Source: a virus
Virus genome (UHGV): UHGV-0086135
Length of the DNA: 64,000 nucleotides
Strand: one strand, 5' to 3'
Below the pieces are notes generated by a model that was not told where the DNA came from, did no database searches, and saw nothing but the letters and a program-made list of their open reading frames with translations. Below, piece after piece: positions 883 to 63,862 of the stretch. Each line of letters begins with the position of its first letter. The first letter of the stretch is position 1. The position numbers were made by a program, and so were the translations under genes.

Positions 883-1344
883 ATGACTATCAACACAGAA
901 GTTTTTATCCGTCGAAATAAGCTTCGTCGTCACTTTGAGTCGGAGTTTCGTCAAATTAACAATGAGATTCGTGAGGCATCAAAAGCAGCAGGGGTCTCAT
1001 CGTTTCATCTAAAATATTCTCAGCATCTTCTTGATCGTGCAATTCAACGGGAGATTGATGAGACATATGTTTTTGAATTATTCCACAAAATAAAAGACCA
1101 TGTTTTAGAAGTTAATGAATTCCTGAGTATGCCTCCGCGTCCTGACATTGACGAGGATTTTATTGATGGGGTTGAATACCGTCCTGGACGTTTAGAAATC
1201 ACAGATGGAAATCTTTGGCTTGGATTTACAGTTTGTAAACCTAATGCGAAGTTCAAAGACCCGTCGCTTCAATGCAGGATGGCAATTATCAACAGTCGTC
1301 GTTTACCAGGAAAGGCTTCTAAAGCAGTAATTAAAACTCAATGA
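883..1344 (+). CDS. regB: RegB site-specific endoribonuclease
   Basis: 153 aa; sequence MTINTEVFIRRNKLRRHFESEF... matches my recollection of T4 RegB. Confidence 0.9.
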   Translation: MTINTEVFIRRNKLRRHFESEFRQINNEIREASKAAGVSSFHLKYSQHLLDRAIQREIDETYVFELFHKIKDHVLEVNEFLSMPPRPDIDEDFIDGVEYRPGRLEITDGNLWLGFTVCKPNAKFKDPSLQCRMAIINSRRLPGKASKAVIKTQ

Positions 1345-4985: not shown

Positions 4986-5008
4986 AGTCTCCTTCGGGAG
5001 ACTTTTTT
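4986..5008 (+). terminator. rho-independent terminator (UUCG-loop hairpin + T-run)
   Basis: agtctcc-ttcg-ggagact followed by ttttt. Confidence 0.7.
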
Positions 5009-5018
5009 CATTTTACCA

Positions 5019-5048
5019 GTTTACTTTCAATTTGAGCCGTGATACTAT
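5019..5048 (+). promoter_or_regulatory. T4-type early promoter
   Basis: GTTTAC 5019-5024, TACTAT 5043-5048. Confidence 0.55.
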
Positions 5049-7563: not shown

Positions 7564-8573
7564 TGAAAACAGTAATGAAAAGCTATTTTGGTAGTCATCT
7601 TTATGGAACTTCTACTCCAGAATCTGATGTAGATTTTAAAGAAATCTTTGTTCCTCCTGCTCGTGATATTCTTATCGGAAATGTTAAAGAGCATATGAGT
7701 AAAAACACTAACAGCACATCATCTAAAAACACTAAAGATGATATTGACCATGAACTATACAGTCTTAAGTATTTCTTTAAATTAGCAGCAGATGGTGAAA
7801 CTGTAGCATTGGATATGCTCCACACTCCACCTGAACTGGTAGTTAAATCTGATTTGCCTGATGTATGGAAGTTTATTCAAGACAACCGTTCTCGTTTTTA
7901 TACGACTAACATGAAATCCTATTTAGGATATGTTCGCAAGCAAGCTTCTAAATACGGTGTTAAGGGTTCCCGTTTGGCCGCATTACGTGATGTATTGAAA
8001 GTAGTTAATCAAATCCCTGAGCAATGGGTTGATTACCAAGAAGACGGTTCCATTAAGCAGCGTCGAACTAAAGTTGAAGATATTAAGCATCGTCTTCCAG
8101 AGAACGAGTTCTGTGAATGGGTATTCCATAATCATGAGAAAACAGGTCCACAAACGTTCTACACTGTGTTGGGTCGTAAATATCAGACAACGCTTTCTCT
8201 TATCGAGCTTAAGCAATCTTTGAATAAACTTGATGCTGAATACGGCGAACGCGCTCGTAAGGCCGAAGCTAATGAGGGCATTGACTGGAAAGCTCTGAGT
8301 CATGCTTGCCGTGGTGGACTCCAACTATTGGAAATTTACAAAACTGGTGACTTAGTCTATCCACTTCAAGATGCTCCATTTATTCTCGACGTGAAGTTGG
8401 GTAAACATCCATTTAAAACTGTTCAAGAGTTTTTGGAAGATGTGGTCGATCAAGTAGAAGCAGCATCCATTGAAGCTTCTAAGAACGGTATGCAGCAAAA
8501 AGTAGACATGGGTTTCTGGGATGACTTCCTTGAGAGGGTTTATCTTGAAAACCACCGAAGTTATTATAAATGA
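7560..8573 (+). CDS. predicted pol-beta-superfamily nucleotidyltransferase-fold protein, 337 aa
   Basis: N-terminal GSHLYGTSTPESDVDF fits GS-x9-DxD signature. Confidence 0.5.
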   Translation: MMKTVMKSYFGSHLYGTSTPESDVDFKEIFVPPARDILIGNVKEHMSKNTNSTSSKNTKDDIDHELYSLKYFFKLAADGETVALDMLHTPPELVVKSDLPDVWKFIQDNRSRFYTTNMKSYLGYVRKQASKYGVKGSRLAALRDVLKVVNQIPEQWVDYQEDGSIKQRRTKVEDIKHRLPENEFCEWVFHNHEKTGPQTFYTVLGRKYQTTLSLIELKQSLNKLDAEYGERARKAEANEGIDWKALSHACRGGLQLLEIYKTGDLVYPLQDAPFILDVKLGKHPFKTVQEFLEDVVDQVEAASIEASKNGMQQKVDMGFWDDFLERVYLENHRSYYK

Positions 8574-8575
8574 TA

Positions 8576-8599
8576 GGGAGCCTTCGGGCTCCCTTTTTT
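8576..8599 (+). terminator. rho-independent terminator
   Basis: gggagcc-ttcg-ggctccc + tttttt. Confidence 0.75.
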
Positions 8600-8623
8600 A
8601 TTTCAAAATTTTTTCACAAAACG

Positions 8624-8653
8624 GTTTACAAGCATAAAGCTTTATGGTACTAT
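8624..8653 (+). promoter_or_regulatory. T4-type early promoter with conserved leader cassette
   Basis: GTTTAC 8624-8629, TACTAT 8648-8653; downstream leader repeated at 36.3 kb and 63.6 kb. Confidence 0.6.
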
Positions 8654-8687
8654 ACAACTATCAACTGATACGGATTTGGGGAATAAA

Positions 8688-8837
8688 ATGAAAACTACGT
8701 TAATTGAAGTAAAAAAGTTGATTGACACAGAAGAAATTTCAGCTTATTTTGAAAATTTCTTAGAAGATGCAACTGAAGATAACGCAGTTTATCTCGCTCA
8801 GAAAATTATAGAAACATATTTGGAGCAGAATCAATGA
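8688..8837 (+). CDS. hypothetical acidic small protein, 49 aa
   Basis: ATG after repeated leader; not in ORF track. Confidence 0.4.
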   Translation: MKTTLIEVKKLIDTEEISAYFENFLEDATEDNAVYLAQKIIETYLEQNQ

Positions 8838-9097
8838 CAGTTTACGTAGATGTTTTAATGAATCATGGATGGAAACTTCGCGGTCATCCAACTAAAAATT
8901 GTCATATGTTCATTGATGGAGATATTGAAGAGCTTCATAAAATGGCAGAAGCAATAGGAATGAAACGTTCTTGGTTTCAAGATAAACGCATTAAACATTA
9001 TGACTTACATGCTCGCCGACGCCAAAAAGCCGTAGAACTTGGAGCTGTAGAAGTATCTCGTCGCGAAGCAGTAAAAATTTGGCAAACATTAAAATAA
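8834..9097 (+). CDS. small conserved protein, 87 aa (resembles DUF4031 family from memory)
   Basis: MTVYVDVLMNHGWKL...HYDLH pattern; ATGA-coupled. Confidence 0.45.
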   Translation: MTVYVDVLMNHGWKLRGHPTKNCHMFIDGDIEELHKMAEAIGMKRSWFQDKRIKHYDLHARRRQKAVELGAVEVSRREAVKIWQTLK

Positions 9098-9100
9098 ATT

Positions 9101-9130
9101 GTTTACAGTAGGGTAGTAGTGTGATACTAT
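9101..9130 (+). promoter_or_regulatory. T4-type early promoter
   Basis: GTTTAC 9101-9106, TACTAT 9125-9130. Confidence 0.55.
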
Positions 9131-9166
9131 TACCCTATCAAAACAAATGTGAAATTGGAGAATAAA

Positions 9167-10135
9167 ATGAAAACTGTAACTATCAATAAGGGTATCTACT
9201 TCGGTAAAGAAATCTCTGGAACTTTTGAGCTCTTAGGCGAATGGTTCCCAGATAATGCTCCGGTAGATGCACAAGGAGATGGTAAAGTTTTTGTTGAAAT
9301 TGACGGTAAACGTCGCGGTGTTTGGGTTTACAAATCAGATATTTCATATGATGGTGTAAAAGTTGAAGAAGTTAAAGAATCGTATGAAGATATGAAAACC
9401 CGCATTAATAAAAGATTTAATGTTATGGGAATGATGACGAATGGTATTATTAATGGAAATATTCGTTCATTGATTATCTCTGGTGCAGCAGGTATTGGTA
9501 AAACGTATTCTTTAGATAAAGCTTTGAATAAAGCAAATGATATTGGATACATTGAATATAAAAGCATTAATGGTAAAATCTCTGGTATTGGTCTTTATGA
9601 GCAGCTTTGGAATAATCGTGAAGAGAATTCTGTCCTTTTGATTGATGATGTGGATGTTTTCTCTGATATGGATATTCTTAATCTTCTAAAAGCCGCTCTG
9701 GACACTGGAGAGACCCGTAAAGTCTGCTGGAGCACTGCGTCTTCTTACTTAGAAGAAAAAGGCATTGAGCGTGAGTTTGAATTTAAAGGAACGATTGTTT
9801 TTATCACAAACGTTGACATTGACCGCGAATTAGACCGTGGTACTAAACTTGCTCCACATTTACAAGCATTAGTGTCCCGCTCGGTTTATTTGGATTTGGG
9901 TGTTCACACTAATGAAGAAATTATGGTCAGGGTTGAAGATGTTATTCTTTCAACTGACATGATGCAAAAGCGCGGTCTTTCTGATGAAGAAACTTATAAA
10001 GCATTATCATGGATGAAAGTTAATGTTAATCGTTTACGCAATGTTTCACTGCGTACTGCTCTTTATCTTGCTGACTTTATTATGACCGACAAAAACGGTT
10101 GGGAAGAAATCGCTGAGGTTACTCTTCTGAAATAA
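9167..10135 (+). CDS. P-loop (AAA-like) ATPase, 322 aa
   Basis: Walker A GAAGIGKT, Walker B LLIDDVD; ATG with GGAG SD. Confidence 0.55.
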   Translation: MKTVTINKGIYFGKEISGTFELLGEWFPDNAPVDAQGDGKVFVEIDGKRRGVWVYKSDISYDGVKVEEVKESYEDMKTRINKRFNVMGMMTNGIINGNIRSLIISGAAGIGKTYSLDKALNKANDIGYIEYKSINGKISGIGLYEQLWNNREENSVLLIDDVDVFSDMDILNLLKAALDTGETRKVCWSTASSYLEEKGIEREFEFKGTIVFITNVDIDRELDRGTKLAPHLQALVSRSVYLDLGVHTNEEIMVRVEDVILSTDMMQKRGLSDEETYKALSWMKVNVNRLRNVSLRTALYLADFIMTDKNGWEEIAEVTLLK

Positions 10136-10236
10136 TTCATAAGAGGACTTCTATGACAAAAAGGCAGTTCAGAAATAGATTATATGGACTGCCATTAAAA
10201 AGATGACTAGAATTAAACTGGTGAATGGAGGTAGTG

Positions 10237-10539
10237 ATGTTATACTCAAAGGCTCGTGAAATTTACGAAACTAAAATTAAAGAAGCAGTATTTCAGTTCG
10301 CAACGACAATGCGATGGACAAATGACTGGGAGTATTCAAAAAATCATAAGAAGCCCATGGTGACAAGAAAGGCTCATATGTTAGTGTTAATAGACCGTGA
10401 GCAGATTAAAGCCCGAGAAGCCCTCCAGAATCATAAAAAGGCTGCCTTTGAATGGTTTATGGATAACACTGCTCCTGAGACCAAGAAAGCGGTAAGTGCA
10501 TGGTTCAGTGGAAAAAATTGTGAAAGAAGTTTCTTTTAG
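10237..10539 (+). CDS. hypothetical protein, 100 aa
   Basis: ATG 10237 with GGAGG SD. Confidence 0.45.
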   Translation: MLYSKAREIYETKIKEAVFQFATTMRWTNDWEYSKNHKKPMVTRKAHMLVLIDREQIKAREALQNHKKAAFEWFMDNTAPETKKAVSAWFSGKNCERSFF

Positions 10540-10541
10540 TG

Positions 10542-10571
10542 GTTTACAAGACTGTTCCTCTGTGGTACTAT
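10542..10571 (+). promoter_or_regulatory. T4-type early promoter (partial copy of leader cassette)
   Basis: GTTTAC 10542-10547, TACTAT 10566-10571. Confidence 0.55.
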
Positions 10572-10599
10572 ACAACTATCAACTACGGAGGAACACAAA

Positions 10600-11127
10600 A
10601 TGAACGCTAAAGATATTTTCAACTTGGTAAATTACAACGATGGTAAATTTAAATCTGAGGCACAAAGCAAGTTCTTTAATGACATCTCAATCGGAGGTGA
10701 AATCACTGTTGATGGAGGACAAATTTACAAATCCCGTTGGAATTGGATCGTTATTATTGATGAGATCGGTATTGTAGAAATTTACAAAAATACGAATAAA
10801 AATCGTACATTACACTGGTCTCGTGATACTAACGAACAGTACAAAAAGGATAAAGCATCTAAATTATCTCGTGTAACTCAAGAAGATATTGAGTTCATCA
10901 AGAAAGATATTTTAATGTATGATAACTTAATTGCTGAAGAGCAAGCTGTTATTGATAAATTTGACGAGATTAAAGCTTCTCGTGAAATTCCTGATTTTAT
11001 GAAAGAATCAGTAAATGAACGATACACTCTCATTTCAGAGCGTATTGAAACTTACAAAAAGCAAAGAGCTGAACGCCAAAATACTCTTCGGAAGTTTGAA
11101 GAACGGTTAAAGACGGTACTCGCATAA
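10600..11127 (+). CDS. hypothetical protein, 175 aa
   Basis: GGAGG SD; helical charged C-terminus. Confidence 0.5.
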   Translation: MNAKDIFNLVNYNDGKFKSEAQSKFFNDISIGGEITVDGGQIYKSRWNWIVIIDEIGIVEIYKNTNKNRTLHWSRDTNEQYKKDKASKLSRVTQEDIEFIKKDILMYDNLIAEEQAVIDKFDEIKASREIPDFMKESVNERYTLISERIETYKKQRAERQNTLRKFEERLKTVLA

Positions 11128-11182
11128 CCGCTTTATACCAAGGATGGTATAATGGTTCTAAGCCCTTTTAATTGAGATTATT

Positions 11183-11590
11183 ATGAAACAGTTGATAATT
11201 AAAAGATTGAATTTATTGATATGTTGTTTATGTGTAGTAGTTGCATATGGTTATTACGCAATTAATGATTATATGCATTATAAAGATTATGATGTTACTG
11301 TAGTTAATACCATTACAGGAACACAAGGAAAAGGGTCTAGTTTATCGTTTATTGCCGTATATGAACTCAAAGATGGTTATAGATTTAGTGAATATATTTC
11401 CCCAGAGATGTATTCTTCAATAGAAAAAGGTGATAATATTACTGTAAGTTTACGTCCTTTCGACGTAAAACAGACATTGTTTGATAATATTGTTTGGTTC
11501 TTTGGAATGGTATTAGTTCAATCTGTGTGTGGTGCTTATATAGTCTGTTCCATCTTATTCTGTATATTTAGTAAAATTGAAATTGAGTGA
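11183..11590 (+). CDS. predicted membrane protein, 135 aa
   Basis: N- and C-terminal hydrophobic helices. Confidence 0.45.
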   Translation: MKQLIIKRLNLLICCLCVVVAYGYYAINDYMHYKDYDVTVVNTITGTQGKGSSLSFIAVYELKDGYRFSEYISPEMYSSIEKGDNITVSLRPFDVKQTLFDNIVWFFGMVLVQSVCGAYIVCSILFCIFSKIEIE

Positions 11591-11597
11591 GGAAAAT

Positions 11598-12488
11598 ATG
11601 TCAGTAGTAATTAATAATGTCAATGCAGTAATTAAATCTTTAGTTAATAAAAAAATGATGAATGAATGGACTGTATTTCGCAGTGCAGAGCCAGATAAAT
11701 TTTTTCATAGATTTAACCCAACTTTGGATTTGAATGTTATTGACAGAGATGTTCATGCAGAAATTTTAGATAAGTTTAAAGTTGATATTGGATTTGGATT
11801 AGAAAAACATTTGCAGCGAACAAACGGATCTGGAATGAGTTTATCTAATCGCATTATGAAAGCCCTTAATAAAATTGGAGCATTGTCTCGTATTAACGCG
11901 AGTGAAATCCTTCGTAATTATAATAAAGGATATGACCTTTATGGTCGACTAATGCCAAAATTATCATTCGATCAAATGATTGCGGATTTGTGGGAAAATC
12001 AAAGACGATTATTAGCATTAGGCGCTCGATTAGCTAAAGGTCTAGATAAACAAATGATTTTTAAGACCAATAATACAGAAGACCTTAAATGCTTTAAATT
12101 TAGTATTCGTGGCGATGATTATTATATCAGAGCTCGCTCTACAGATTATGTCAATATGGGGCATCATCTCTGTTTAGCTTTTGAAGTTTTAAAAGAAGCT
12201 GGAACATTAGAATATTCATCTGGTGCAAAATGCCCTATTGGTTCAAGTTGTATTTTAATTTATCGCCCGGATGAATCCAGTTCAACTACATTGCCTACGA
12301 AACCTGTATCAGTTCGTAGTAACGAAAAACATTCTGAACAAATTGATTATTTTAATAAACAGATTGAAGAGCTGAATATTTCTATTCAACAATATGATGA
12401 TGAAATTTTCAGACTATCTGGACTGAGTAGTAAAGCTAAATCTGAGCGTGAAAAGTTAATTAAAATTGTCGATTTACTTAAATCTTAA
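11598..12488 (+). CDS. coiled-coil paralogue family member A, 296 aa
   Basis: ATG with GAGGAAA SD; C-terminal heptad-rich tail. Confidence 0.55.
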   Translation: MSVVINNVNAVIKSLVNKKMMNEWTVFRSAEPDKFFHRFNPTLDLNVIDRDVHAEILDKFKVDIGFGLEKHLQRTNGSGMSLSNRIMKALNKIGALSRINASEILRNYNKGYDLYGRLMPKLSFDQMIADLWENQRRLLALGARLAKGLDKQMIFKTNNTEDLKCFKFSIRGDDYYIRARSTDYVNMGHHLCLAFEVLKEAGTLEYSSGAKCPIGSSCILIYRPDESSSTTLPTKPVSVRSNEKHSEQIDYFNKQIEELNISIQQYDDEIFRLSGLSSKAKSEREKLIKIVDLLKS

Positions 12489-12496
12489 GGAATACC

Positions 12497-13519
12497 ATGA
12501 AAACTCGTTCTCAAATTGAAGATATGGTTCGTAATGCCAGCTATACTCGTGATGCTATGACGTTTTTGTGTGAAAATAATTTAGACCTTGGTAAAGTTAA
12601 TTGTTCCATTCATGCCTTTAAACATCTGAACAGCAGTGAATGGGTGCGCAATTTTAACCAAGCAGGATATATTACACAAATGACGGCTCGTGAGCAGCTC
12701 ACTGATTTCTGTAAAACTATTGATTATAAAAATCCTCTATTTGTTCAAGGTGTTGGCCAAAGTAAGGTCGATTTATCATCTGGATTTTTCAATCCAAATC
12801 ATTATCGTATTGAATGGAGATTTATTGCTCTATTCCGTAAACAATTAAAACAAATTTTATCAATTGCGAGTCGATTAAAAGGTTCTGATATTAACTTAAA
12901 GAATCTGAAATTTGATGGTTATACTCTTCAGATGGAAGTAAGACCATTAAAAGAAAATAACAGAACTGCGCGAATTAGCTTTAAACCTAATACAAAAAAT
13001 TCTCTTTCAATTTGCGAATGCCTTAAATCACAGTTGACAGAAGCATTTAAGTATATGGATGTTGTTGCCGCTGTTCAGTCTAAGATTTTACCTCATTTTG
13101 AGCGAAATTGGGAACATACAACAACGTATGAACTTGATATGATCGTTTCATTTAAATACGATTTTTTGAGAAAGGACGAAGTCCCACAAGAGAAAAAGCA
13201 GGAAGTGCAAGATAACTTAAATTTATCCAATTACTCATCAAACGATCCTAAATTTTGGATGTATAGTTCAAGTAATAAAGATGCATGGAAATTCAATAAA
13301 GTGAATTTTCTTCCTGTTGAAAATCCGAGTCTTAAACCTGTTGAAAAATGGCATGCGGATGCGATTGAGAAGTCTATCAAGGCAGTAGATGATGAACTCG
13401 TTAAAGCAACTAATGAAGTGTTAGAAGCTGAAAAGATGCTAGAAAAAGCTCAAGAAAAAGTCAAAAATCTTACGAAGCAACGTTCTAAACTGAACAATGC
13501 ACTAAATGCACTAAACTAG
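12497..13519 (+). CDS. coiled-coil paralogue family member B, 340 aa
   Basis: N-terminal MKTR...; central motif shared with member C; coiled-coil tail. Confidence 0.55.
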   Translation: MKTRSQIEDMVRNASYTRDAMTFLCENNLDLGKVNCSIHAFKHLNSSEWVRNFNQAGYITQMTAREQLTDFCKTIDYKNPLFVQGVGQSKVDLSSGFFNPNHYRIEWRFIALFRKQLKQILSIASRLKGSDINLKNLKFDGYTLQMEVRPLKENNRTARISFKPNTKNSLSICECLKSQLTEAFKYMDVVAAVQSKILPHFERNWEHTTTYELDMIVSFKYDFLRKDEVPQEKKQEVQDNLNLSNYSSNDPKFWMYSSSNKDAWKFNKVNFLPVENPSLKPVEKWHADAIEKSIKAVDDELVKATNEVLEAEKMLEKAQEKVKNLTKQRSKLNNALNALN

Positions 13520-13548
13520 TTTACTTTGCCACAAGGATGTGGTATAAT
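13519..13548 (+). promoter_or_regulatory. T4-type early promoter
   Basis: GTTTAC 13519-13524, TATAAT 13543-13548. Confidence 0.55.
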
Positions 13549-13576
13549 GTTCTTACTTTCTACTGAGGAGATTAAT

Positions 13577-22330: not shown

Positions 22331-22531
22331 ATGAATCCTGAATCTAAATTATCGCAACGAATTGCTGAAGAACGTGCCAAATTTTTCCAGAACATGAAAC
22401 ACAATGGTATTGAGGATGAAGTTTTTCTAAATTGGTTCTGGAATAATAAGTATGCAGCATGTGAAGGAGCTTTGTCATTATCAGTCGCAATGATGTACGA
22501 AGGCTGGAAGGGTGCCAAACAGTTTAGCTAA
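22331..22531 (+). CDS. hypothetical protein, 66 aa
   Basis: TAAATG-coupled. Confidence 0.45.
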   Translation: MNPESKLSQRIAEERAKFFQNMKHNGIEDEVFLNWFWNNKYAACEGALSLSVAMMYEGWKGAKQFS

Positions 22532-22548
22532 GGGCTTCGGCCCTTTTT
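22532..22548 (+). terminator. rho-independent terminator
   Basis: gggc-ttcg-gccc + ttttt. Confidence 0.7.
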
Positions 22549-24233: not shown

Positions 24234-24551
24234 ATGACTGATAAACCCGAAATTAATGATGAAGTGGAAAAGCTTATTTCTTCTATTGAAGAAAAGAACC
24301 GTCTTGAAGCAGAAAGAAAAGCAAATAAGTTATTGTCTAAAAACAAACGCGAACTGAACCGTCTTTATAAGCACGCTCAGATTGCAGCTGAAAACAATAA
24401 TTTCGCTCAATACGAATATGCTATCAAGAAAAGTCGGGATATTCTAAAACAGCCATATAACGATGAACTCATTAGTATTCTTTGGAAGACTACTAGATCG
24501 CAGATTGAGGATATGATTGATGCTTACACACGTAAAATTCAAGCGTCTTAA
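24234..24551 (+). CDS. hypothetical protein, 105 aa
   Basis: SD-preceded ORF. Confidence 0.45.
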   Translation: MTDKPEINDEVEKLISSIEEKNRLEAERKANKLLSKNKRELNRLYKHAQIAAENNNFAQYEYAIKKSRDILKQPYNDELISILWKTTRSQIEDMIDAYTRKIQAS

Positions 24552-24966: not shown

Positions 24967-26169
24967 ATGAAAGTATGCATTTTTATGGCTCGAGGTCTTG
25001 AAGGTTGCGGCGTAACTAAATTTTCTCTCGAGCAGCGTGATTGGTTTATTAAAAATGGTCATGAAGTAACTTTGGTTTATGCTAAAGATAAATCATTTAC
25101 CCGTAATTGCGCGCATGATTATAAATCATTTTCAATTCCGGTTTTATTGGCAAAAGAATACGATAAAACACTTAAGCTGGTAAATGATTGTGATATTCTA
25201 ATTATCAATTCAGTTCCTGCTACTTCAGTCGAAGAAGACACTATTAATAACTATAAAAAAATTATTGATAACATTAAACCTTCAGTTCGTGTTGTAGTTT
25301 ATCAACATGACCATTCTTCTCTTTCTTTGCGCCGAAATTTGGGATTAGAAGAAACTGTTCGTCGAGCTGATGTTATTTTTAGTCATTCTGATAATGGTGA
25401 TTTTAATAAAGTTTTGATGAAAGAATGGTATCCAGAAACAGTTTCTCTGTTTGATGATATTGAAGAAGCACCGACTGTATACAACTTTCAGCCTCCTATG
25501 GATATTGCGAAGGTTCGATCAACCTACTGGAAAGATGTTTCTGAAATTAATATGAATGTCAACCGTTGGATCGGTCGTACGACTACATGGAAAGGTTTTT
25601 ATCAGATGTTTGATTTTCACGAAAAACATCTTAAACCTGCGGGATTAAGTACTATTATGGAAGGTCTGGAACGTTCTCCAGCGTTCATTCCTATTAAAGA
25701 AAAAGGAATTCCATACGAATATTATCGTCTTCATCAAGTAGACCAAATTAAAATTGCTCCTAATTTGCCGACGCAAATTCTCGACCGTTATGTAAATAGC
25801 GAAATGCTTGAACGCATGAGTAAATCCGGATTTGGTTATCAGCTGAGTAAGTTGGATAAAAAATATCTACAACGTTCTTTAGAATATACTCATCTCGAGC
25901 TTGGTGCGTGTGGAACAATTCCGGTATTTTGGAAATCTACTGGCGAAAATTTAAAATTCCGTGTTGATAATACTCCGTTAATTTCTCATGATAGCGGTAT
26001 CGTTTGGTTTGATGAAAATGACATGGAATCAACATTTGAACGTATTAAAGAACTGTCATCTGACCGAGCTCTTTATGACCGTGAACGCGAAAAAGCTTAT
26101 GAATTTTTGTATCAGCATCAAGATTCAAGCTTCTGCTTTAAAGAACAGTTTGACATTATTACAAAATAA
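24967..26169 (+). CDS. agt: DNA alpha-glucosyltransferase
   Basis: 400 aa; near-identical to T4 alpha-gt as I recall (MARGLEGCGVTKFSLEQRDWF...). Confidence 0.95.
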   Translation: MKVCIFMARGLEGCGVTKFSLEQRDWFIKNGHEVTLVYAKDKSFTRNCAHDYKSFSIPVLLAKEYDKTLKLVNDCDILIINSVPATSVEEDTINNYKKIIDNIKPSVRVVVYQHDHSSLSLRRNLGLEETVRRADVIFSHSDNGDFNKVLMKEWYPETVSLFDDIEEAPTVYNFQPPMDIAKVRSTYWKDVSEINMNVNRWIGRTTTWKGFYQMFDFHEKHLKPAGLSTIMEGLERSPAFIPIKEKGIPYEYYRLHQVDQIKIAPNLPTQILDRYVNSEMLERMSKSGFGYQLSKLDKKYLQRSLEYTHLELGACGTIPVFWKSTGENLKFRVDNTPLISHDSGIVWFDENDMESTFERIKELSSDRALYDREREKAYEFLYQHQDSSFCFKEQFDIITK

Positions 26170-26170
26170 A

Positions 26171-26185
26171 GGGCTTCGGCCCTTT
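26171..26185 (+). terminator. UUCG-loop hairpin (terminator-like)
   Basis: gggc-ttcg-gccc + ttt. Confidence 0.5.
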
Positions 26186-26208
26186 AGCTTTATACGGAGT
26201 TTGATATA

Positions 26209-30792: not shown

Positions 30793-31479
30793 ATGAAACT
30801 GTCTAAAGATACTACTGCTCTGCTTAAAAATTTCGCTACTATTAACTCTGGTATTATGCTTAAATCTGGTCAATTTATTATGACTCGCGCAGTTAATGGT
30901 ACAACTTATGCGGAAGCAAATATTTCTGACACTATTGATTTTGATGTAGCAATTTACGATTTGAACGGTTTTCTCGGTATTCTGTCTCTAGTTAATGACG
31001 ATGCAGAAATTTCCCAGTCAGAAGATGGAAATATTAAAATTGCTGATGCCCGTTCAACGATTTTTTGGCCAGCAGCCGATCCGAGTACAGTAGTTGCTCC
31101 TAATAAACCAATTCCATTCCCGGTAGCATCTGTTGTTACCGAAATTAAAGCTGAAGACCTTCAACAGCTATTGCGTGTATCTCGTGGTCTGCAGATTGAT
31201 ACAATTGCTATCACAGTAAAAGAAGGTAAAATCGTAATTAACGGTTTTAATAAAGTGGAAGATTCTGCTTTGACCCGTGTTAAATATTCTTTGACTCTTG
31301 GTGATTATGATGGTGAAAATACATTTAATTTCATTATCAATATGGCAAATATGAAAATGCAACCAGGAAATTATAAACTTCTGCTCTGGGCAAAAGGTAA
31401 ACAAGGTGCTGCTAAATTTGAAGGTGAACACGCGAATTATGTAGTAGCTCTTGAAGCTGATTCTACCCACGATTTTTAA
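30793..31479 (+). CDS. 45: sliding clamp gp45
   Basis: 228 aa acidic protein; conserved position and size. Confidence 0.95.
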   Translation: MKLSKDTTALLKNFATINSGIMLKSGQFIMTRAVNGTTYAEANISDTIDFDVAIYDLNGFLGILSLVNDDAEISQSEDGNIKIADARSTIFWPAADPSTVVAPNKPIPFPVASVVTEIKAEDLQQLLRVSRGLQIDTIAITVKEGKIVINGFNKVEDSALTRVKYSLTLGDYDGENTFNFIINMANMKMQPGNYKLLLWAKGKQGAAKFEGEHANYVVALEADSTHDF

Positions 31480-31483
31480 TAAA

Positions 31484-31495
31484 GGGCTTCGGCCC
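31484..31495 (+). terminator. UUCG-loop hairpin
   Basis: gggc-ttcg-gccc between genes 45 and 44; weak T-run. Confidence 0.4.
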
Positions 31496-31528
31496 TTAAA
31501 TTTACACTAAAACTTGAATGAGGAAATT

Positions 31529-33054: not shown

Positions 33055-33423
33055 ATGATTGAAATTACTCTTAAAAAACCTGAAGATTTTCTGAAAGTAA
33101 AAGAAACCTTGACTCGTATGGGAATTGCTAATAATAAAGATAAAGTTCTGTATCAGTCCTGCCATATTCTTCAGAAAAAAGGACTATACTATATCGTTCA
33201 TTTTAAAGAAATGCTTCGTATGGATGGTCGCCAGGTTGAAATGACAGAAGAAGATGAAGTTCGCCGTGATTCGATTGCGTGGCTGTTAGAAGATTGGGGA
33301 CTGATTGAAATCGTTCCTGGTCAAAGAACTTTTATGAAAGATTTAACCAATAACTTCCGAGTTATTTCTTTTAAACAAAAACATGAATGGAAACTCGTTC
33401 CTAAATATACGATTGGTAATTAA
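33055..33423 (+). CDS. regA: translational repressor RegA
   Basis: 122 aa at conserved position. Confidence 0.9.
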   Translation: MIEITLKKPEDFLKVKETLTRMGIANNKDKVLYQSCHILQKKGLYYIVHFKEMLRMDGRQVEMTEEDEVRRDSIAWLLEDWGLIEIVPGQRTFMKDLTNNFRVISFKQKHEWKLVPKYTIGN

Positions 33424-33425
33424 GC

Positions 33426-33447
33426 AAGGGGCTTCGGCCCCTTATTT
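33426..33447 (+). terminator. rho-independent terminator
   Basis: aaggggc-ttcg-gcccctt + atttgg. Confidence 0.6.
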
Positions 33448-36198: not shown

Positions 36199-36211
36199 TA
36201 GAATAAATCTA

Positions 36212-36232
36212 GGGACCTCCGGGTCCCTTTTT
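36212..36232 (+). terminator. rho-independent terminator
   Basis: gggacc-tccg-ggtccc + ttttt. Confidence 0.75.
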
Positions 36233-36316
36233 CATACAAGTAATATAAATTCTATACTTAAGAAAAATAGATGATTCTAGGTCCTGTAAATTCATTAAAA
36301 ATTTTTTCACAAAACT

Positions 36317-36346
36317 ATTTACATCCCTGTTCTTCCGTGGTACTAT
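36317..36346 (+). promoter_or_regulatory. T4-type early promoter with conserved leader cassette
   Basis: ATTTAC 36317-36322, TACTAT 36341-36346; leader identical to 8.6 kb and 63.6 kb copies. Confidence 0.6.
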
Positions 36347-36380
36347 ACAACTATCAACTGATACGGATTTGGAGAATAAA

Positions 36381-36638
36381 ATGAAAATTGTTTATGGTTG
36401 TTTAGCAGCGTGTTTAGTTGCATTAGCAGTTGTTCTAGTTGCATTAGCAGCTGTTCCATTTATTGATATTGAAAATGACACTCAGAATGTGATTGAATCT
36501 AATACTGTTATTCACATGAATGGTAAAGTATCAACAAAAATTGATGATAATCTTCATATGAATACTAATGGAACGCTTGGTGTTCAATTAGGTAATACCT
36601 GTGTAAGCACTACTGGAGTAATTACTACTTGTATTTGA
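36381..36638 (+). CDS. small membrane protein, 85 aa (imm.1 position)
   Basis: ATG after repeated leader; hydrophobic N-terminus with internal 15-bp direct repeat. Confidence 0.5.
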   Translation: MKIVYGCLAACLVALAVVLVALAAVPFIDIENDTQNVIESNTVIHMNGKVSTKIDDNLHMNTNGTLGVQLGNTCVSTTGVITTCI

Positions 36639-36648
36639 GGAAATTATT

Positions 36649-37029
36649 ATGAAAATTGCTATTTTGGTTATTGCATTAGGTCTTACTGGCTGTGTAGCTC
36701 AAGGACCAGTAGTAAATCAGTCTGATGCAGGAAAAATTGTAAATTGTTCAAGCAAATTTTATAATCCTAATGTTAAGTGTTATAAAGAAGCTCCAAAACA
36801 GACAGTAGAACAAATGCAGGCGAATTTTGACGAAGCTATTCGTCCAGATGAATCTGCTCAAGCATATCGTAATTCAGATGTAATTACACGCGAAGAAAAA
36901 ATTGAAAACTACTGTGCTGAACTTTGGGCTAATTGGGCTAATAATTACCAATGGCGTACCGGTAAAAATGCTCCGATGGAGTATGTAGTGAATTCTTATA
37001 ATTCATGTGTAAAAAATTTGACTAAGTGA
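36649..37029 (+). CDS. predicted lipoprotein, 126 aa
   Basis: Signal peptide with lipobox LTGC. Confidence 0.55.
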   Translation: MKIAILVIALGLTGCVAQGPVVNQSDAGKIVNCSSKFYNPNVKCYKEAPKQTVEQMQANFDEAIRPDESAQAYRNSDVITREEKIENYCAELWANWANNYQWRTGKNAPMEYVVNSYNSCVKNLTK

Positions 37030-39730: not shown

Positions 39731-40912
39731 ATGTCTATTGCAGATTTAAAATCCCGTTTGATTAAAGCTTCCACTTCTAAAATGACTGCTGAACTGACTA
39801 CATCTAAATTCTTTAATGAAAAGGATGTAATCCGTACAAAAATCCCAATGCTTAATATCGCTATTTCTGGTGCGATTGATGGTGGTATGCAGTCTGGTTT
39901 AACCATTTTTGCAGGTCCTTCTAAACACTTTAAATCAAATATGTCTTTGACTATGGTTGCGGCGTATTTGAACAAATATCCTGACGCGGTATGTCTGTTT
40001 TATGATAGCGAATTTGGTATTACTCCAGCTTATTTGCGATCCATGGGAGTTGACCCGGAACGAGTAATTCATACACCAATTCAGTCAGTTGAACAGCTGA
40101 AAATTGATATGGTGAATCAGCTTGAAGCTATTGAGCGTGGTGAAAAAGTTATTGTATTCATCGACTCAATCGGTAATATGGCTTCTAAGAAAGAAACGGA
40201 AGATGCCTTAAATGAAAAATCTGTGGCAGATATGACTCGTGCTAAATCACTGAAGTCATTATTCCGTATTGTTACTCCTTATTTTAGTATTAAAAACATT
40301 CCATGTGTTGCGGTTAACCATACAATTGAAACAATTGAAATGTTTAGTAAAACCGTGATGACAGGTGGTACAGGCGTAATGTATTCGGCTGATACTGTAT
40401 TCATTATCGGTAAGCGCCAGATTAAAGATGGTTCTGATCTTCAGGGGTATCAATTTGTTCTAAATGTAGAAAAATCTCGTACCGTTAAAGAAAAAAGTAA
40501 ATTCTTTATTGATGTTAAATTTGACGGTGGTATCGATCCTTATTCTGGATTGTTAGATATGGCTCTTGAATTAGGATTTGTGGTAAAACCTAAAAATGGC
40601 TGGTATGCTCGTGAATTTCTTGACGAAGAAACCGGCGAGATGATTCGCGAAGAAAAATCTTGGCGTGCAAAAGATACCAATTGCACTACATTCTGGGGTC
40701 CTTTATTTAAGCATCAACCATTCCGAGATGCTATTAAACGTGCTTATCAGTTAGGTGCTATTGATAGTAATGAAATTGTTGAAGCTGAAGTTGATGAATT
40801 GATTAACTCAAAGGTTGAAAAATTTAAATCTCCAGAAAGTAAAAGTAAATCAGCAGCTGATTTAGAAACTGACCTAGATCAGTTAAGTGATATGGAAGAA
40901 TTTAATGAATAA
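39731..40912 (+). CDS. uvsX: recombinase UvsX (RecA-like)
   Basis: 393 aa; Walker A GPSKHFKS; conserved position. Confidence 0.95.
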   Translation: MSIADLKSRLIKASTSKMTAELTTSKFFNEKDVIRTKIPMLNIAISGAIDGGMQSGLTIFAGPSKHFKSNMSLTMVAAYLNKYPDAVCLFYDSEFGITPAYLRSMGVDPERVIHTPIQSVEQLKIDMVNQLEAIERGEKVIVFIDSIGNMASKKETEDALNEKSVADMTRAKSLKSLFRIVTPYFSIKNIPCVAVNHTIETIEMFSKTVMTGGTGVMYSADTVFIIGKRQIKDGSDLQGYQFVLNVEKSRTVKEKSKFFIDVKFDGGIDPYSGLLDMALELGFVVKPKNGWYAREFLDEETGEMIREEKSWRAKDTNCTTFWGPLFKHQPFRDAIKRAYQLGAIDSNEIVEAEVDELINSKVEKFKSPESKSKSAADLETDLDQLSDMEEFNE

Positions 40913-46566: not shown

Positions 46567-46591
46567 AGGACTCCTTCGGGAGTCCTTTTTT
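46567..46591 (+). terminator. rho-independent terminator
   Basis: aggactcc-ttcg-ggagtcct + ttttt. Confidence 0.75.
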
Positions 46592-46601
46592 CATTTTACC
46601 G

Positions 46602-46631
46602 GTTTACTTTCCAAAATGAGTATGGTATAAT
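46602..46631 (+). promoter_or_regulatory. T4-type early promoter
   Basis: GTTTAC 46602-46607, TATAAT 46626-46631. Confidence 0.6.
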
Positions 46632-51167: not shown

Positions 51168-52483
51168 CATTTGATGATTTGACTGAAGGTCAGAAAAATG
51201 CCTTTAACATCGTTATGAGGGCTATTAAAGAAAAGAAACATCATGTAACTATTAATGGACCTGCTGGTACTGGTAAGACTACTCTTACTAAGTTCATTAT
51301 TGAAGCCTTAATATCTACGGGCGAAACTGGCATTATTTTAGCAGCTCCTACTCACGCAGCTAAAAAGATTCTTTCAAAACTGTCAGGGAAAGAAGCGAGT
51401 ACTATTCACAGTATTCTTAAAATTAACCCGGTAACATACGAAGAAAACGTTCTTTTTGAACAAAAAGAAGTACCGGATTTGGCTAAATGCAGAGTATTAA
51501 TCTGCGATGAAGTATCAATGTATGATAGAAAGCTATTTAAAATTCTGCTTTCAACTATCCCGCCGTGGTGTACTATAATTGGAATAGGTGATAATAAGCA
51601 AATTAGACCCGTTGACCCAGGAGAAAACACTGCTTATATTAGTCCGTTCTTTACACATAAAGATTTTTATCAGTGTGAACTCACTGAAGTTAAACGCAGT
51701 AATGCTCCTATTATTGATGTAGCTACTGATGTTCGCAACGGTAAGTGGATTTATGATAAAGTTGTTGACGGGCATGGAGTACGTGGATTTACCGGTGATG
51801 CCGCTTTACGCGATTTTATGGTAAATTATTTTTCAATCGTAAAATCACTAGATGATTTGTTTGAAAATCGCGTCATGGCATTTACGAATAAATCTGTTGA
51901 TAAGTTAAATAACATTATTCGCAAAAAGATTTTTGAAACTGATAAAGATTTTATCGTCGGTGAAATTATTGTAATGCAGGAACCATTAATTAAAACATAT
52001 AAAATTGATGGAAAGCCTGTGTCAGAAATTATTTTTAATAACGGACAATTAGTTCGTATTATAGAAGCAGAGTATACATCAACATTTGTTAAAGCTCGTG
52101 GTGTTTCTGGAGAATATCTAATTCGTCATTGGGATTTAACAGTAGAAACTTACGGCGATGATGAATATTATCGTGAAAAGATTAAAATAATTTCATCTGA
52201 TGAAGAGCTGTATAAGTTTAACCTATTTTTAGGTAAAACGGCAGAAACGTATAAAAATTGGAATAAAGGTGGAAAAGCTCCGTGGAGTGATTTTTGGGAT
52301 GCTAAATCACAGTTTAGTAAAGTGAAAGCACTTCCTGCATCAACATTCCATAAAGCTCAGGGCATGTCTGTAGACCGTGCTTTCATTTATACGCCTTGTA
52401 TTCATTATGCAGACGCTGAACTAGCTCAGCAGCTTCTTTATGTTGGTGTTACTCGTGGTCGTTATGATGTGTTTTATGTGTGA
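51164..52483 (+). CDS. dda: DNA helicase Dda (SF1)
   Basis: 439 aa; Walker A GPAGTGKTT, Walker B LICDEVSM. Confidence 0.9.
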   Translation: MTFDDLTEGQKNAFNIVMRAIKEKKHHVTINGPAGTGKTTLTKFIIEALISTGETGIILAAPTHAAKKILSKLSGKEASTIHSILKINPVTYEENVLFEQKEVPDLAKCRVLICDEVSMYDRKLFKILLSTIPPWCTIIGIGDNKQIRPVDPGENTAYISPFFTHKDFYQCELTEVKRSNAPIIDVATDVRNGKWIYDKVVDGHGVRGFTGDAALRDFMVNYFSIVKSLDDLFENRVMAFTNKSVDKLNNIIRKKIFETDKDFIVGEIIVMQEPLIKTYKIDGKPVSEIIFNNGQLVRIIEAEYTSTFVKARGVSGEYLIRHWDLTVETYGDDEYYREKIKIISSDEELYKFNLFLGKTAETYKNWNKGGKAPWSDFWDAKSQFSKVKALPASTFHKAQGMSVDRAFIYTPCIHYADAELAQQLLYVGVTRGRYDVFYV

Positions 52484-55586: not shown

Positions 55587-55611
55587 AGTTTAAAATTTTT
55601 TCATAAAACTA

Positions 55612-55640
55612 TATACATCAGTAGTTGATTATGGTACTAT
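55612..55640 (+). promoter_or_regulatory. diverged early promoter/leader cassette
   Basis: TATACA ... TACTAT then GGAGAATAAAATG leader followed by only 11 codons. Confidence 0.4.
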
Positions 55641-55758
55641 ATCAATATCAACTACTGATACAGAAAATAACTTGGAGAATAAAATGGAAAATTTGCCAAA
55701 GGTGCTGCCACTCTTCTGAAACGCATCGCTCCAATGTTCAATTAACGAGGAAATTGTA

Positions 55759-56945: not shown

Positions 56946-57206
56946 ATGAAATATATTAATCGTTCTATCGCAGCATTAGTATTAGCAGTGTCTTTAGCAG
57001 GATGTACTGATGCTGATAATGCAACCAAAGTTTTATCTTCAAGCGGTTTTACTAATATTGAAATCACTGGATACAACTGGTTCGGTTGCTCTGAAAATGA
57101 TTTCCAACATACTGGATTTCGTGCTATTGGACCTACTGGGCAGAAAGTAGAAGGAACTGTATGTTCTGGTCTATTCTTCAAGGATTCGACTATCCGTTTT
57201 AAATAA
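56946..57206 (+). CDS. predicted lipoprotein, 86 aa
   Basis: Signal peptide with lipobox LAGC. Confidence 0.5.
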   Translation: MKYINRSIAALVLAVSLAGCTDADNATKVLSSSGFTNIEITGYNWFGCSENDFQHTGFRAIGPTGQKVEGTVCSGLFFKDSTIRFK

Positions 57207-57223
57207 AAGGCCTTCGGGCCTTT
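57206..57223 (+). terminator. UUCG-loop hairpin (terminator-like)
   Basis: aaaggcc-ttcg-ggccttt. Confidence 0.55.
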
Positions 57224-57275
57224 AGCTTTATGATTACCGGAGTATAATATTCCCGAAACCAAACGAGGATAAGTG

Positions 57276-59093: not shown

Positions 59094-59122
59094 TTTACTT
59101 TACCACAAGGATGTGGTATAAT
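59093..59122 (+). promoter_or_regulatory. T4-type early promoter
   Basis: GTTTAC 59093-59098, TATAAT 59117-59122. Confidence 0.6.
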
Positions 59123-59147
59123 TAATTGGGCAAATGAGGATATTGAA

Positions 59148-61550: not shown

Positions 61551-62489
61551 ATGTACAATATTAAATGCCTGACCAAAAACGAACAAGCTGAAATTGTCAA
61601 ACTGTATTCAAGTGGTAATTACACCCAACAGGAATTGGCTGATTGGCAAGGTGTATCGGTTGACACAATCCGTCGTGTTTTGAAAAATGCTGAAGAAGCT
61701 GAACGCTCCAAAGTTACTATTAGCGGTGATATTACAGTTAAAGTTAATAGCGATGCAGTTATTGCTCCAGTTGCTAAATCTGACATTATTTGGAATGCAT
61801 CTAAAAAATTCATTTCAATTACTGTTGACGGTGTAACTTATAACGCAACTCCTAATACTCATTCAAACTTCCAGGAAATTCTTAATCTGCTTGTTACAGA
61901 TAAATTGGAAGAAGCGGCGCAAAAAATTAACGTTCGTCGCGCCGTTGAAAAATATATTTCCGGTGATGTTCGAATTGAAGGTGGAAGCTTGTTCTATCAA
62001 AATATTGAATTGCGATCTGGTTTAGTTGATCGTATTCTCGATTCGATGGAAAAAGGCGAAAACTTTGAATTTTATTTTCCGTTCTTGGAAAATCTGTTGG
62101 AAAACCCAAGCCAAAAAGCGGTATCTCGACTCTTTGATTTCTTGGTAGCAAACGATATTGAAATTACAGAAGATGGTTACTTCTATGCTTGGAAAGTAGT
62201 TCGCAGCAATTACTTTGACTGTCATTCAAATACTTTTGATAACAGTCCTGGTAAAGTAGTTAAAATGCCACGTACTCGTGTGAATGACGATGATACACAA
62301 ACTTGTTCTCGTGGTCTGCATGTGTGTTCTAAATCTTATATTCGTCACTTTGGCAGTTCAACCAGTCGAGTTGTAAAAGTTAAAGTACATCCTCGCGATG
62401 TAGTATCAATTCCGATTGATTACAATGATGCTAAAATGCGTACCTGCCAATACGAAGTAGTTGAAGACGTTACTGAACAATTTAAATAA
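61551..62489 (+). CDS. rIIB: rIIB protein
   Basis: 312 aa immediately after rIIA. Confidence 0.9.
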   Translation: MYNIKCLTKNEQAEIVKLYSSGNYTQQELADWQGVSVDTIRRVLKNAEEAERSKVTISGDITVKVNSDAVIAPVAKSDIIWNASKKFISITVDGVTYNATPNTHSNFQEILNLLVTDKLEEAAQKINVRRAVEKYISGDVRIEGGSLFYQNIELRSGLVDRILDSMEKGENFEFYFPFLENLLENPSQKAVSRLFDFLVANDIEITEDGYFYAWKVVRSNYFDCHSNTFDNSPGKVVKMPRTRVNDDDTQTCSRGLHVCSKSYIRHFGSSTSRVVKVKVHPRDVVSIPIDYNDAKMRTCQYEVVEDVTEQFK

Positions 62490-62503
62490 GGGCTTCGGCC
62501 CTT
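62488..62503 (+). terminator. UUCG-loop hairpin (terminator-like)
   Basis: gggc-ttcg-gccc after rIIB. Confidence 0.5.
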
Positions 62504-62517
62504 AACTAAGGAAAATT

Positions 62518-62712
62518 ATGCTAGGTTATCAAGCACGAGTAAAAGAAGAATACGATCAATTAATGCTCAAAATTAATGCACTGAGCAAATTTTTAGAAAG
62601 CACAAAGTTTCTAACGATTAATGAAGTTGAGCAAGAATTACTGCTTTCACAATTCATCTCAATGAAATCTTACGCAGATTGTTTAGAAAAAAGAATTGCA
62701 CAATTCAAATAA
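62518..62712 (+). CDS. hypothetical protein, 64 aa
   Basis: AAGGAAA SD. Confidence 0.45.
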   Translation: MLGYQARVKEEYDQLMLKINALSKFLESTKFLTINEVEQELLLSQFISMKSYADCLEKRIAQFK

Positions 62713-62716
62713 AATA

Positions 62717-62739
62717 AGGGGCTTCGGCCCTTTTGTTTT
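62717..62739 (+). terminator. rho-independent terminator
   Basis: aggggc-ttcg-gccctt + ttttgtttt. Confidence 0.7.
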
Positions 62740-62750
62740 AAGGAAAAATT

Positions 62751-63080: not shown

Positions 63081-63570
63081 CTTGACTAGTGAAATGAAGG
63101 TCAAAATTGCTGATACAGCAAGATACTCTTTAAAACAAAACCCGAACCAGGATAAAGCAGAAGTTATCGAAAGATGTCGTATCGCGGTGTACGCAGAGTT
63201 TTTTGTAGCAGATTGGCTAAGCGGGTATGTTAACAAAGGCCAAGAGGATGTTAATGACCCGTATACATACGCATGGGATGTATTGGCGCATCCAAGATAC
63301 TGCGGGCTTCGTGTAGAAGTTAAGACACATCAAACTGACTCGCGTTGGATTTCGGTAACAACAGGATGCAGCGGAGAGTATCCATACGGTTCTGGAATAA
63401 ATCTAGGGCCCATTCTGAATCATCAGGTCGCTGACTGTATAATTATATTCAACACTAAAGAAATTCATCCAGGTGTCATCCAGTACACTCCGAAGTTCAT
63501 CGGTGATAGAGAAGACCTTCGTAAGGTTGTAAGAAAAAGCAACTACAACGGATGGTATCTTTCCATTTAA
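63013..63570 (+). CDS. denB: endonuclease IV DenB
   Basis: 185 aa at conserved position after rIIB; start overlaps previous ORF. Confidence 0.7.
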   Translation: MQKTNPGLQRLFQIPTFTLSNSDLTSEMKVKIADTARYSLKQNPNQDKAEVIERCRIAVYAEFFVADWLSGYVNKGQEDVNDPYTYAWDVLAHPRYCGLRVEVKTHQTDSRWISVTTGCSGEYPYGSGINLGPILNHQVADCIIIFNTKEIHPGVIQYTPKFIGDREDLRKVVRKSNYNGWYLSI

Positions 63571-63586
63571 AAATTTTCACAAAACG

Positions 63587-63616
63587 GTTTACATATCACA
63601 AGGACTGTGGTACTAT
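63587..63616 (+). promoter_or_regulatory. T4-type early promoter with conserved leader cassette
   Basis: GTTTAC 63587-63592, TACTAT 63611-63616; leader identical to 36.3 kb copy. Confidence 0.6.
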
Positions 63617-63650
63617 ACAACTATCAACTGATACGGATTTGGAGAATAAA

Positions 63651-63857
63651 ATGTTTACTACGGCTGAATTAAAACGAGCAAAAGCTAAGAAAGGGCAAGG
63701 AAAATATAAAGCTGAATTAGTTAAAGAACTTCAGTTTGCTGAGGCTGAATTGAATTCGATGATTATTCAAAATGCTCCAGAAACTGAAATTGCTCTTAAA
63801 CGTATTGCGAATAAATGTCTTCGTGATACAATCGTCGATCTTTTAGCGGATTATTGA
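63651..63857 (+). CDS. hypothetical basic protein, 68 aa
   Basis: ATG directly after repeated leader GGAGAATAAAATG. Confidence 0.5.
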   Translation: MFTTAELKRAKAKKGQGKYKAELVKELQFAEAELNSMIIQNAPETEIALKRIANKCLRDTIVDLLADY

Positions 63858-63862
63858 GTAAA

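Follow-up and report, generated by a model that had tools for sequence, protein, structure and literature searches.

A string of about 45 bp that comprises the -10 region, 5' UTR, SD and start codon recurs almost exactly at three loci of the virus genome UHGV-0086135, each time ahead of a different small gene. This raises the question of whether such copies serve co-regulation (through a shared RNA structure or a protein site), provide homology for the recombinational shuffling of accessory genes, or both. The stretch analysed (the window, 64,000 nucleotides) is by its sequence the early region of a Tequatrovirus (T4/T2/T6-like). It aligns colinearly with the T4 reverse complement from ~63.6 kb through the map origin to ~167 kb, in agreement with the T-even origin assigned in the original prediction, and positions 8000-12000 share 99.8% identity with Shigella phage vB_SsoM_113 and 95-99% identity with several hundred T4-like coliphages. 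By T4 nomenclature, copy 1 is flanked by nrdC.11 and nrdC.10, copy 2 by gene 43 and imm.1, and copy 3 is directly 3' of denB, while related copies at 10.5 and 55.6 kb lie upstream of nrdC.8 and between motB and cef, respectively.

The 45-mer GGTACTATACAACTATCAACTGATACGGATTTGGRGAATAAAATG is present with 0 mismatches at all three loci and on the + strand throughout (coordinates in the table), and is found in none of 100 dinucleotide-preserving shuffles (chance expectation 0). The sole variable base within the block is at 8680, which is G in copy 1 and A in copies 2 and 3; thus, the near-exact match that had been proposed holds on careful alignment, with a difference at one position of 45. With a repeat finder, the family reaches 94 nt and takes in the two diverged copies that had been noted at ~10.5 and ~55.6 kb (10543-10604 and 55589-55694), both of which are real. 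An additional partial copy, which consists of the 3' end only and is absent from the original prediction, occurs at 9155-9175 (TTGGAGAATAAAATGAAAACT; repeat-finder extent 9142-9177) as the sixth in the window.

When compared segment by segment, the identity of the three copies is bipartite: (i) the UP/-35 block is identical at 22-26 of 29 positions, (ii) the spacer bases between -35 and -10 are identical at 4-5 of 15, which is the random level, and (iii) the -10 to ATG segment is identical at 44-45 of 45. Identity ends at the ATG (11-19 of 45 positions in the coding sequence 3' of it), and farther upstream of the UP block it is ~30%. The spacers are site-specific and conserved between phages, and their random-level similarity to one another implies that the paralogues are old. 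Old paralogues with identical flanking blocks in turn require strong purifying selection or repeated exchange. T4, T2 and T6 carry the same cassette family at the same sites, together with a sixth member 5' of motA (just past the window end); exact copies number three in the window versus one in T4 (plus three near copies). We consider it probable, as part of the explanation taken whole, that the three copies belong to a paralogous family of immediate-early promoter-leader cassettes in Tequatrovirus, with six members at the nrdC.10, nrdC.8, imm.1, motB/cef, denB/ndd.6 and motA sites.

The promoter elements agree with this assignment. TTTACA-17-TACTAT with a TG is found in all three copies (8625-8653, 36318-36346 and 63588-63616), and an A/T-rich AAAATTTTTTCACAAAAC, which fits the published UP-like block at about -40 to -60, lies 5' of each -35. 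Early promoters of T4 have a UP/-35/TGn/-10 architecture (PMC2988021), with GTTTAC at -36 to -31 and an A-rich region at -40 to -44 (PMC1524935). The T4 paralogue located 5' of ndd.6 carries a depositor-annotated promoter (X75802.1) with -35 GTTTACA and -10 TACTAT, and this promoter feature ends at an A seven bases past the -10. By analogy, transcription of the window copies would start at about 8660, 36353 and 63623 to give a 28-nt 5' UTR. The anatomy originally read from the repeat (-10, 5' UTR, SD and start codon) is correct. A hairpin and T-run are positioned 5' of copies 1 and 2, and no stem-loop was found upstream of copy 3.

Table. Coordinates of the cassette copies, the genes that they adjoin and regB in the 64,000-nt window.
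Feature	Position	Strand	Basis or remark
regB	883..1344	+	Pfam REGB_T4 E=1.4e-68; 152/153 aa (99%) identical to T4 RegB
Terminator hairpin and T-run just 5' of copy 1 (PeSL stem-loop part)	8575..8594	+	8-bp stem, 6 GC pairs
Copy 1, A/T-rich UP-like block and -35 (GTTTACA 8624-8630)	8602..8630	+	-35 same as annotated on the T4 paralogue X75802.1
Copy 1, identical 45-nt block	8646..8690	+	Extended -10 TGg TACTAT (hexamer 8648-8653), SD, ATG 8688
Copy 1, predicted transcription start; leader of 28 nt	A8660	+	Transferred from the promoter feature in X75802.1
Copy 1, RegB position with variant GGGGAATAAAA	8678-8688	+	Sequence
Two-ORF module: 49-aa ORF (8688-8837) and 87-aa DUF4031 ORF (8834-9097)	8688..9097	+	Absent from T4, T2 and T6
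Second early promoter (TTTACA-17-TACTAT) and partial cassette 3' end	9102..9175	+	RegB optimum 9157-9167 exact; nrdC.10 ATG 9167
Diverged member 5' of nrdC.8, shortened leader (CAACTACGGAGGAACACAAAATG)	10543..10602	+	-35, -10 and initial transcribed bases unchanged
Terminator hairpin 3' of gene 43 and 5' of copy 2	36211..36228	+	
Copy 2: UP/-35 (TTTACA 36318-36323), site-specific spacer, 45-nt block 36339-36383	36295..36383	+	
Copy 2: predicted start 36353; exact RegB optimum 36371-36381; ATG 36381		+	
85-aa predicted membrane ORF between copy 2 and imm.1 (36649-37029)	36381..36638	+	
Diverged member between motB and cef, longer leader	55589..55719	+	RegB optimum 55674-55684 exact; 11-codon ORF 55684-55719
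Copy 3: UP/-35 (TTTACA 63588-63593), spacer, 45-nt block 63609-63653; no hairpin	63565..63653	+	
Copy 3: predicted start 63623; RegB optimum 63641-63651; ATG 63651		+	
68-aa ORF driven by copy 3	63651..63857	+	In T2; absent from T4 and T6

The ORFs that follow copies 1, 2 and 3 (49, 85 and 68 aa) are mutually unrelated, as expected from the claim that each copy drives a different small gene, and match only PHROG families of unknown function. Among phages, the same cassette at the same site precedes three or four different downstream genes. After denB, the ORF begins MKIAEIEL and stops (T4), MFTTAELK... (window and T2) or MKFKFYYAKHK... (T6 and four IMG/VR genomes). Gene 43 is followed directly by imm.1 (T4 and T6), by MKIVYGCLAA... 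(window), by MKIVMGCLAV... or by the unrelated MKNIQTNF... (T2); the 85-aa ORF is missing in T4 and T6, and T2 has an unrelated 83-aa ORF in its place. After nrdC.11 come nrdC.10 directly, the two-ORF module or a 59-aa ORF (STML-198); in Karamvirus EnC07, this same locus holds the 49-aa and DUF4031 ORFs.

Very short ORFs are noted at two of the sites. The 55.6-kb cassette drives only an 11-codon ORF, MENLPKVLPLF in the window, MENSLKVLILF in T4 and MDNSLKVLILF in T6 (each followed by a stop), with an 89-aa ORF at this position in T2; the 11-codon ORF could be a remnant or a leader peptide. The denB-site cassette of T4 (~167020-166996) precedes the 8-codon MKIAEIEL ORF, which overlaps the ndd.6 start (ATGA) and has the same first 12 nt as the imm.1 start, in the manner of a recombination scar. 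Separately, a gene for an RNA polymerase ADP-ribosylase-like protein lies between nrdC.11 and the nrdC.10 cassette in T2 (51800-52285) and in Gelderlandvirus STML-198 (1497-1982 of the stretch compared), which implies that the upstream edge of the cassette is also an insertion point.

Of the two routes to co-regulation that had been proposed for the identical leaders, a shared RNA structure is not borne out. For the 31-nt leader, the minimum free energy is -0.5 kcal/mol, and its folds, whether or not the first codons are included, are no more stable than those of shuffles (z-scores from +0.1 to +0.8); an Rfam scan of the whole window returned no family at the gathering threshold. It is thus very improbable that the leader acts as a folded regulatory RNA, be it an attenuator, a riboswitch or an sRNA target, or as an operator bound by some repressor of translation besides RegB, even though it is conserved across genera and 12 nt of its middle (TGATACGGATTT) are explained by neither promoter nor RegB function. 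To our knowledge, the leader has no resemblance to the RegA, gp32 and gp43 operators, which counts further against an operator.

The second route, a protein site, is upheld at the level of sequence and is identified as that of RegB/S1. The T4 RegB endoribonuclease has GGAGAAUAAAA as its optimum and GGAGRAYARAA as its consensus, cuts GGAA poorly and requires a single-stranded site (PMC1702504; PMC3014915); 68 intergenic GGAG motifs of T4 were tested by Durand et al. 2006 (PMC1702504). The last 11 nt of the cassette leader are GGAGAATAAAA, which is this published optimum, and regB itself is encoded in the window. Exact optima are located at 36371, 63641, 55674 and 9157, corresponding to two of the identical copies (36371 and 63641), the 55.6-kb member and the 9.1-kb partial copy. 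The consensus is observed 4 times in the 64 kb versus 0.38 expected, and all four sites are at SD-ATG ends of the family type. RegB targets carry a GGA triplet followed by G (or U) and an A-rich 7-mer. The sites have the GGA followed by G and an A-rich 7-mer (except in copy 1), are predicted to be single-stranded and coexist with a phage-encoded RegB. Thus, the most likely shared control is strong expression in the immediate-early phase and then cutting by RegB/S1 within the SD, with the cleavage predicted by analogy to T4.

Copy 1 deviates from this pattern. Its leader ends in GGGGAATAAAA (GGGG) and departs from the RegB consensus, as its only GGA precedes an A; by the published rules this makes copy 1 a poor RegB substrate, and its leader probably escapes RegB shut-off. 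The T4 orthologue, like the other copies, has GGAGAATAAAA at this position. The regB gene is driven by an early promoter of its own (827-855) and has the SD GAGGAGAATAACATG.

The first transcribed bases, ATCAACTGATACGGATTT (+1 to ~+18), are nearly unchanged in Gelderlandvirus and partly so in Karamvirus, despite 67-76% identity of the flanking genes. There is an outside chance that they form an undescribed cis-element of immediate-early messages; candidate functions could include an S1/ribosome standby or translation-enhancer site, a secondary RNase G/E entry, or a promoter-escape signal for Alt-modified polymerase.

The second proposed role, in the exchange of accessory genes, is addressed by the breakpoints between the window and its relatives. 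Breakpoints against T4 were taken from chained BLAST blocks, with the block edges compared to the ATGs of the cassettes and of 13 other early promoters. The blocks end at 8696 (ATG+8), 36388 (ATG+7) and 63653 (ATG+2), such that all three copies have an edge within 10 nt of the ATG compared to none of the ATGs of the 13 other early promoters (Fisher p=0.002); gene-start breakpoints would also be expected if conserved regulatory islands merely flanked fast-turnover ORFs, and the coincidence is not in itself proof that the cassette causes the exchange. Comparisons with T2 and T6 give the same edges at all three copies, and in T2 a further 197 nt are inserted precisely where the ATG of the 55.6-kb copy lies. 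Among several hundred phage records taken as spread samples, most alignments at site 1 (571 matching records) end at ATG+8 of copy 1 and a few within the leader at 8664, while individual records at site 3 (905 matching) end at the ATG (63653) or at 63629. Relatives are thus rearranged exactly at these repeats, T4, T2, T6 and sampled records alike, as the shuffling role had foreseen.

At all three sites, the cassette 3' end occurs a second time at the far boundary of the window insert. Site 1 is flanked by TTGGRGAATAAAATGAAAACT at 8676 and 9155 (20/21; direct repeat 8676-8696 / 9155-9175) and site 2 by ATGAAAATTG at 36381 and 36649 (10/10 bp). At site 3 a decayed ~20-bp cassette 3' end, CGGATT..GAGTAAAATG (CGGATTATTGAGTAAAATG), at ~63841-63866 makes up the 3' end of the 68-aa ORF and precedes the next ORF. 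Since Karamvirus EnC07 keeps both ORFs at the locus, the state of T4, T2 and T6 at site 1 is best understood as the outcome of a deletion between the 21-bp repeats. The imm.1-site cassette of T2 is chimeric, with an imm.1-type UP block joined to 63 nt that are identical to the nrdC.8 cassette, spacer included, and one IMG/VR genome has an nrdC.8-type cassette at a third locus. The T2 chimera and the module swaps are the footprints expected of exchange within conserved blocks.

Productive recombination between the three copies of a single genome was considered and rejected, as the direct repeats, 27 kb apart, span essential genes. The intervals contain 43, 44, 45, 62, 41, 61, uvsX, 39 and 60; judging from this gene map, only same-site exchange between genomes or the excision of small modules would be productive. 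Exact-pattern scans of IMG/VR recovered only about six T4-like genomes and little widened the list of downstream genes, and one metagenome scan returned three contigs, all with the ordinary nrdC.10 copy.

Selection is clearly part of the conservation of the cassette, and the point to be weighed is whether it is all of it, with strong purifying selection acting separately on promoter strength, on promoter escape, on SD spacing and on the RegB/S1 site, and gene turnover due to unrelated illegitimate events. A random-level spacer between conserved functional blocks is what selection on function predicts. Across genera, the -10-to-ATG block of Gelderlandvirus STML-198 is identical at 44/47 positions versus 67% for nrdC.11 and 76% for nrdC.10 (binomial p ~0.002 or less), and ACTGATAC...GGAGAA.AAAATG is kept in Karamvirus. 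Selection alone is nonetheless unlikely, as it leaves unexplained the inserts bounded on both sides by cassette 3'-end copies and the T2 chimera, in which a whole nrdC.8-type spacer and leader occupy another locus, while the 13 other early promoters, equally functional, are without a breakpoint at the ATG relative to T4. Another account is concerted evolution, by which paralogous cassettes would recently have converted one another or taken in modules, so that the three copies are identical without every base being needed. T4 has one exact copy and carries an extra ACT in its imm.1 and ndd.6 copies, an ACT missing from all three window copies; the leader at the imm.1 site varies between phages (with or without ACT, CTAATAC, or of nrdC.8 type) while that at the nrdC.10 site is constant, and the imm.1 and denB copies of T6 share an exact 40-bp repeat. 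However, ACT/ACTACT is a slippage-prone tandem repeat that may recur independently, the ACT states do not consistently go together in a genome (in two IMG/VR genomes, ACT is present at imm.1 and missing at denB), and the variable sites are too few for a tree. A comparison of the ACT indel and of single-base variants over T4, T2, T6, the window and IMG/VR genomes gave no clean gene-conversion signal, and recent conversion as the source of the identity is possible but doubtful.

The T6 repeat has also been annotated otherwise: in the T6 RefSeq record (NC_054907), attL is assigned to the imm.1 copy and attR to the denB copy (24507-24546 and 166589-166628), which would make the repeats attachment sites or the ends of a mobile element. 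This can hardly be credited, as T-even phages have a strictly lytic life cycle, the two 'att' labels enclose the ends of the record in a circularly permuted genome, and the sequences are promoters followed by ORFs. The label is typical of an automated prophage finder that meets a 40-bp exact repeat; the att-site reading of the two T6 copies is rejected, and the annotation is almost certainly an artefact.

Promoter-leader cassettes that combine early expression, RegB control and short homology are thus the preferred explanation. Host sigma-70 RNA polymerase would act on the A/T-rich UP block, GTTTACA, the 17-bp spacer and TGgTACTAT, and start transcription at the A seven bases past the -10. The predicted leader, unstructured and ~28 nt long, would present the SD GGAG seven bases 5' of the AUG, and the downstream accessory ORF would be strongly expressed in the first minutes of infection. 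As RegB accumulates, it would act in trans with ribosomal protein S1 on its optimum in the last 11 leader bases (GGAGAAUAAAA) and cut GG^AG within the SD, which would turn these messages off together, the 8.6-kb copy probably being exempt. Over evolutionary time, the conserved blocks, chiefly the SD-ATG end, may provide the short homology for the loss, gain or replacement of ORF modules when relatives co-infect a cell, as in the published PeSL model. The breakpoints and flanking repeats are observed at the cassettes, and the recombination mechanism that would have produced them belongs to an explanation that, as a whole, we hold with good confidence. The original prediction is supported as a whole, with the RNA-structure alternative removed and the protein site assigned to RegB/S1.

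Further repeats and one unexpected database record were noticed. A second early-promoter pair (13517-13549 / 59091-59123) lies upstream of nrdC.4-like and rIIA.1-like ORFs and matches at 31/32 positions from -35 through -10, including the spacer, while its leaders differ, which is the opposite of the cassette pattern. A PeSL-like pair (5002-5028 / 46585-46611) shares a junction of terminator tail and early promoter, CTTTTTTCATTTTACCRGTTTACTTTC, at 26/27. Near-identical terminator hairpins, GGGCTTCGGCCC, with a UUCG loop, are found at 26163-26193, 31476-31506, 57201-57231, 62711-62741, 22518-22545, 33415-33442 and 62476-62503. A 46-nt exact match to the cassette occurs at 40562-40607 of PV654520.1 ('Pseudomonas phage vB_PSGBLB0006', 142 kb), which is probably a mislabelled or contaminated T4-like sequence.

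The wiring of T-even accessory genes is illustrated by these loci: one cassette of ~90 bp would supply a new ORF with a very strong immediate-early promoter, a good ribosome-binding site and a RegB off-switch, and the same cassette would serve as homology for ORF swaps between relatives. For annotation, such repeats are to be read as early promoters or PeSLs (promoter-early stem-loops), not as att sites as in the T6 RefSeq record, and for engineering, the cassette may be used as a natural landing pad and expression unit for gene insertion into T4-like phages. The finding opens no new question; its loose end is the conservation of the first ~18 transcribed bases across genera.

As to known systems, the window copies share with T4 early promoters (motA, ndd.6, imm.1, nrdC.10 and nrdC.8) the UP block, the GTTTAC -35, the 17-bp spacer, the TGn, a conserved initial transcribed region and an orientation with early genes. 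There is no difference in kind, as the window copies are orthologues or paralogues of T4's own; the -10-to-ATG block is identical in three members in the window, whereas T4 has one exact and three near copies. With the RegB/S1 sites of T4 early mRNAs (PMC1702504) they share the exact 11-nt optimum GGAGAAUAAAA in the SD, an early intergenic location, predicted single-strandedness and the presence of regB. They differ in the GGGG of copy 1, which is expected to be a poor substrate, and in that cleavage of the window leaders is predicted.

The closest counterpart for exchange is the PeSL. In RB49/phi1, for which PeSLs were described, crossovers were placed in the stretch from the -10 to the ATG or SD, and mini-circles were detected as excision products (Arbiol et al. 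2010, PMC2839356); PeSLs are later described in the T4/PST pair, including exchange in the ndd region that adjoins copy 3 (Comeau et al. 2014, PMC4122927). According to the text of these papers, PeSLs and the cassette have in common a composite of hairpin, AT-rich region, -35/-10 (TTTACW N17 TAYWAT), SD and ATG, and both are repeated and adjoin indels or replacements of small ORFs between close relatives. In the window, the SD and start codon form the 3' end of the repeat, and all three copies adjoin indels or replacements relative to T4, T2 and T6. The stem-loop is present at copies 1 and 2 and missing at copy 3; by strict definition, copies 1 and 2 would be PeSLs and copy 3 would be one in part. 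The text of the PeSL papers (PMC2839356 and PMC4122927) yielded no link between the SD end of the PeSL and a RegB site, and joining the two is a small synthesis, not a discovery. Integron attC sites and gene cassettes offer an analogy only, in that their modules, promoterless or with a single ORF, are enclosed by short repeats and are gained and lost. By contrast to integrons, the phage cassette is without a dedicated site-specific recombinase and without the attC fold, the phage modules bring or use a promoter, and exchange would be by general or short-homology phage recombination. The kind of feature is thus already known, as T4 early promoters, RegB sites and PeSL shuffling elements are all published.
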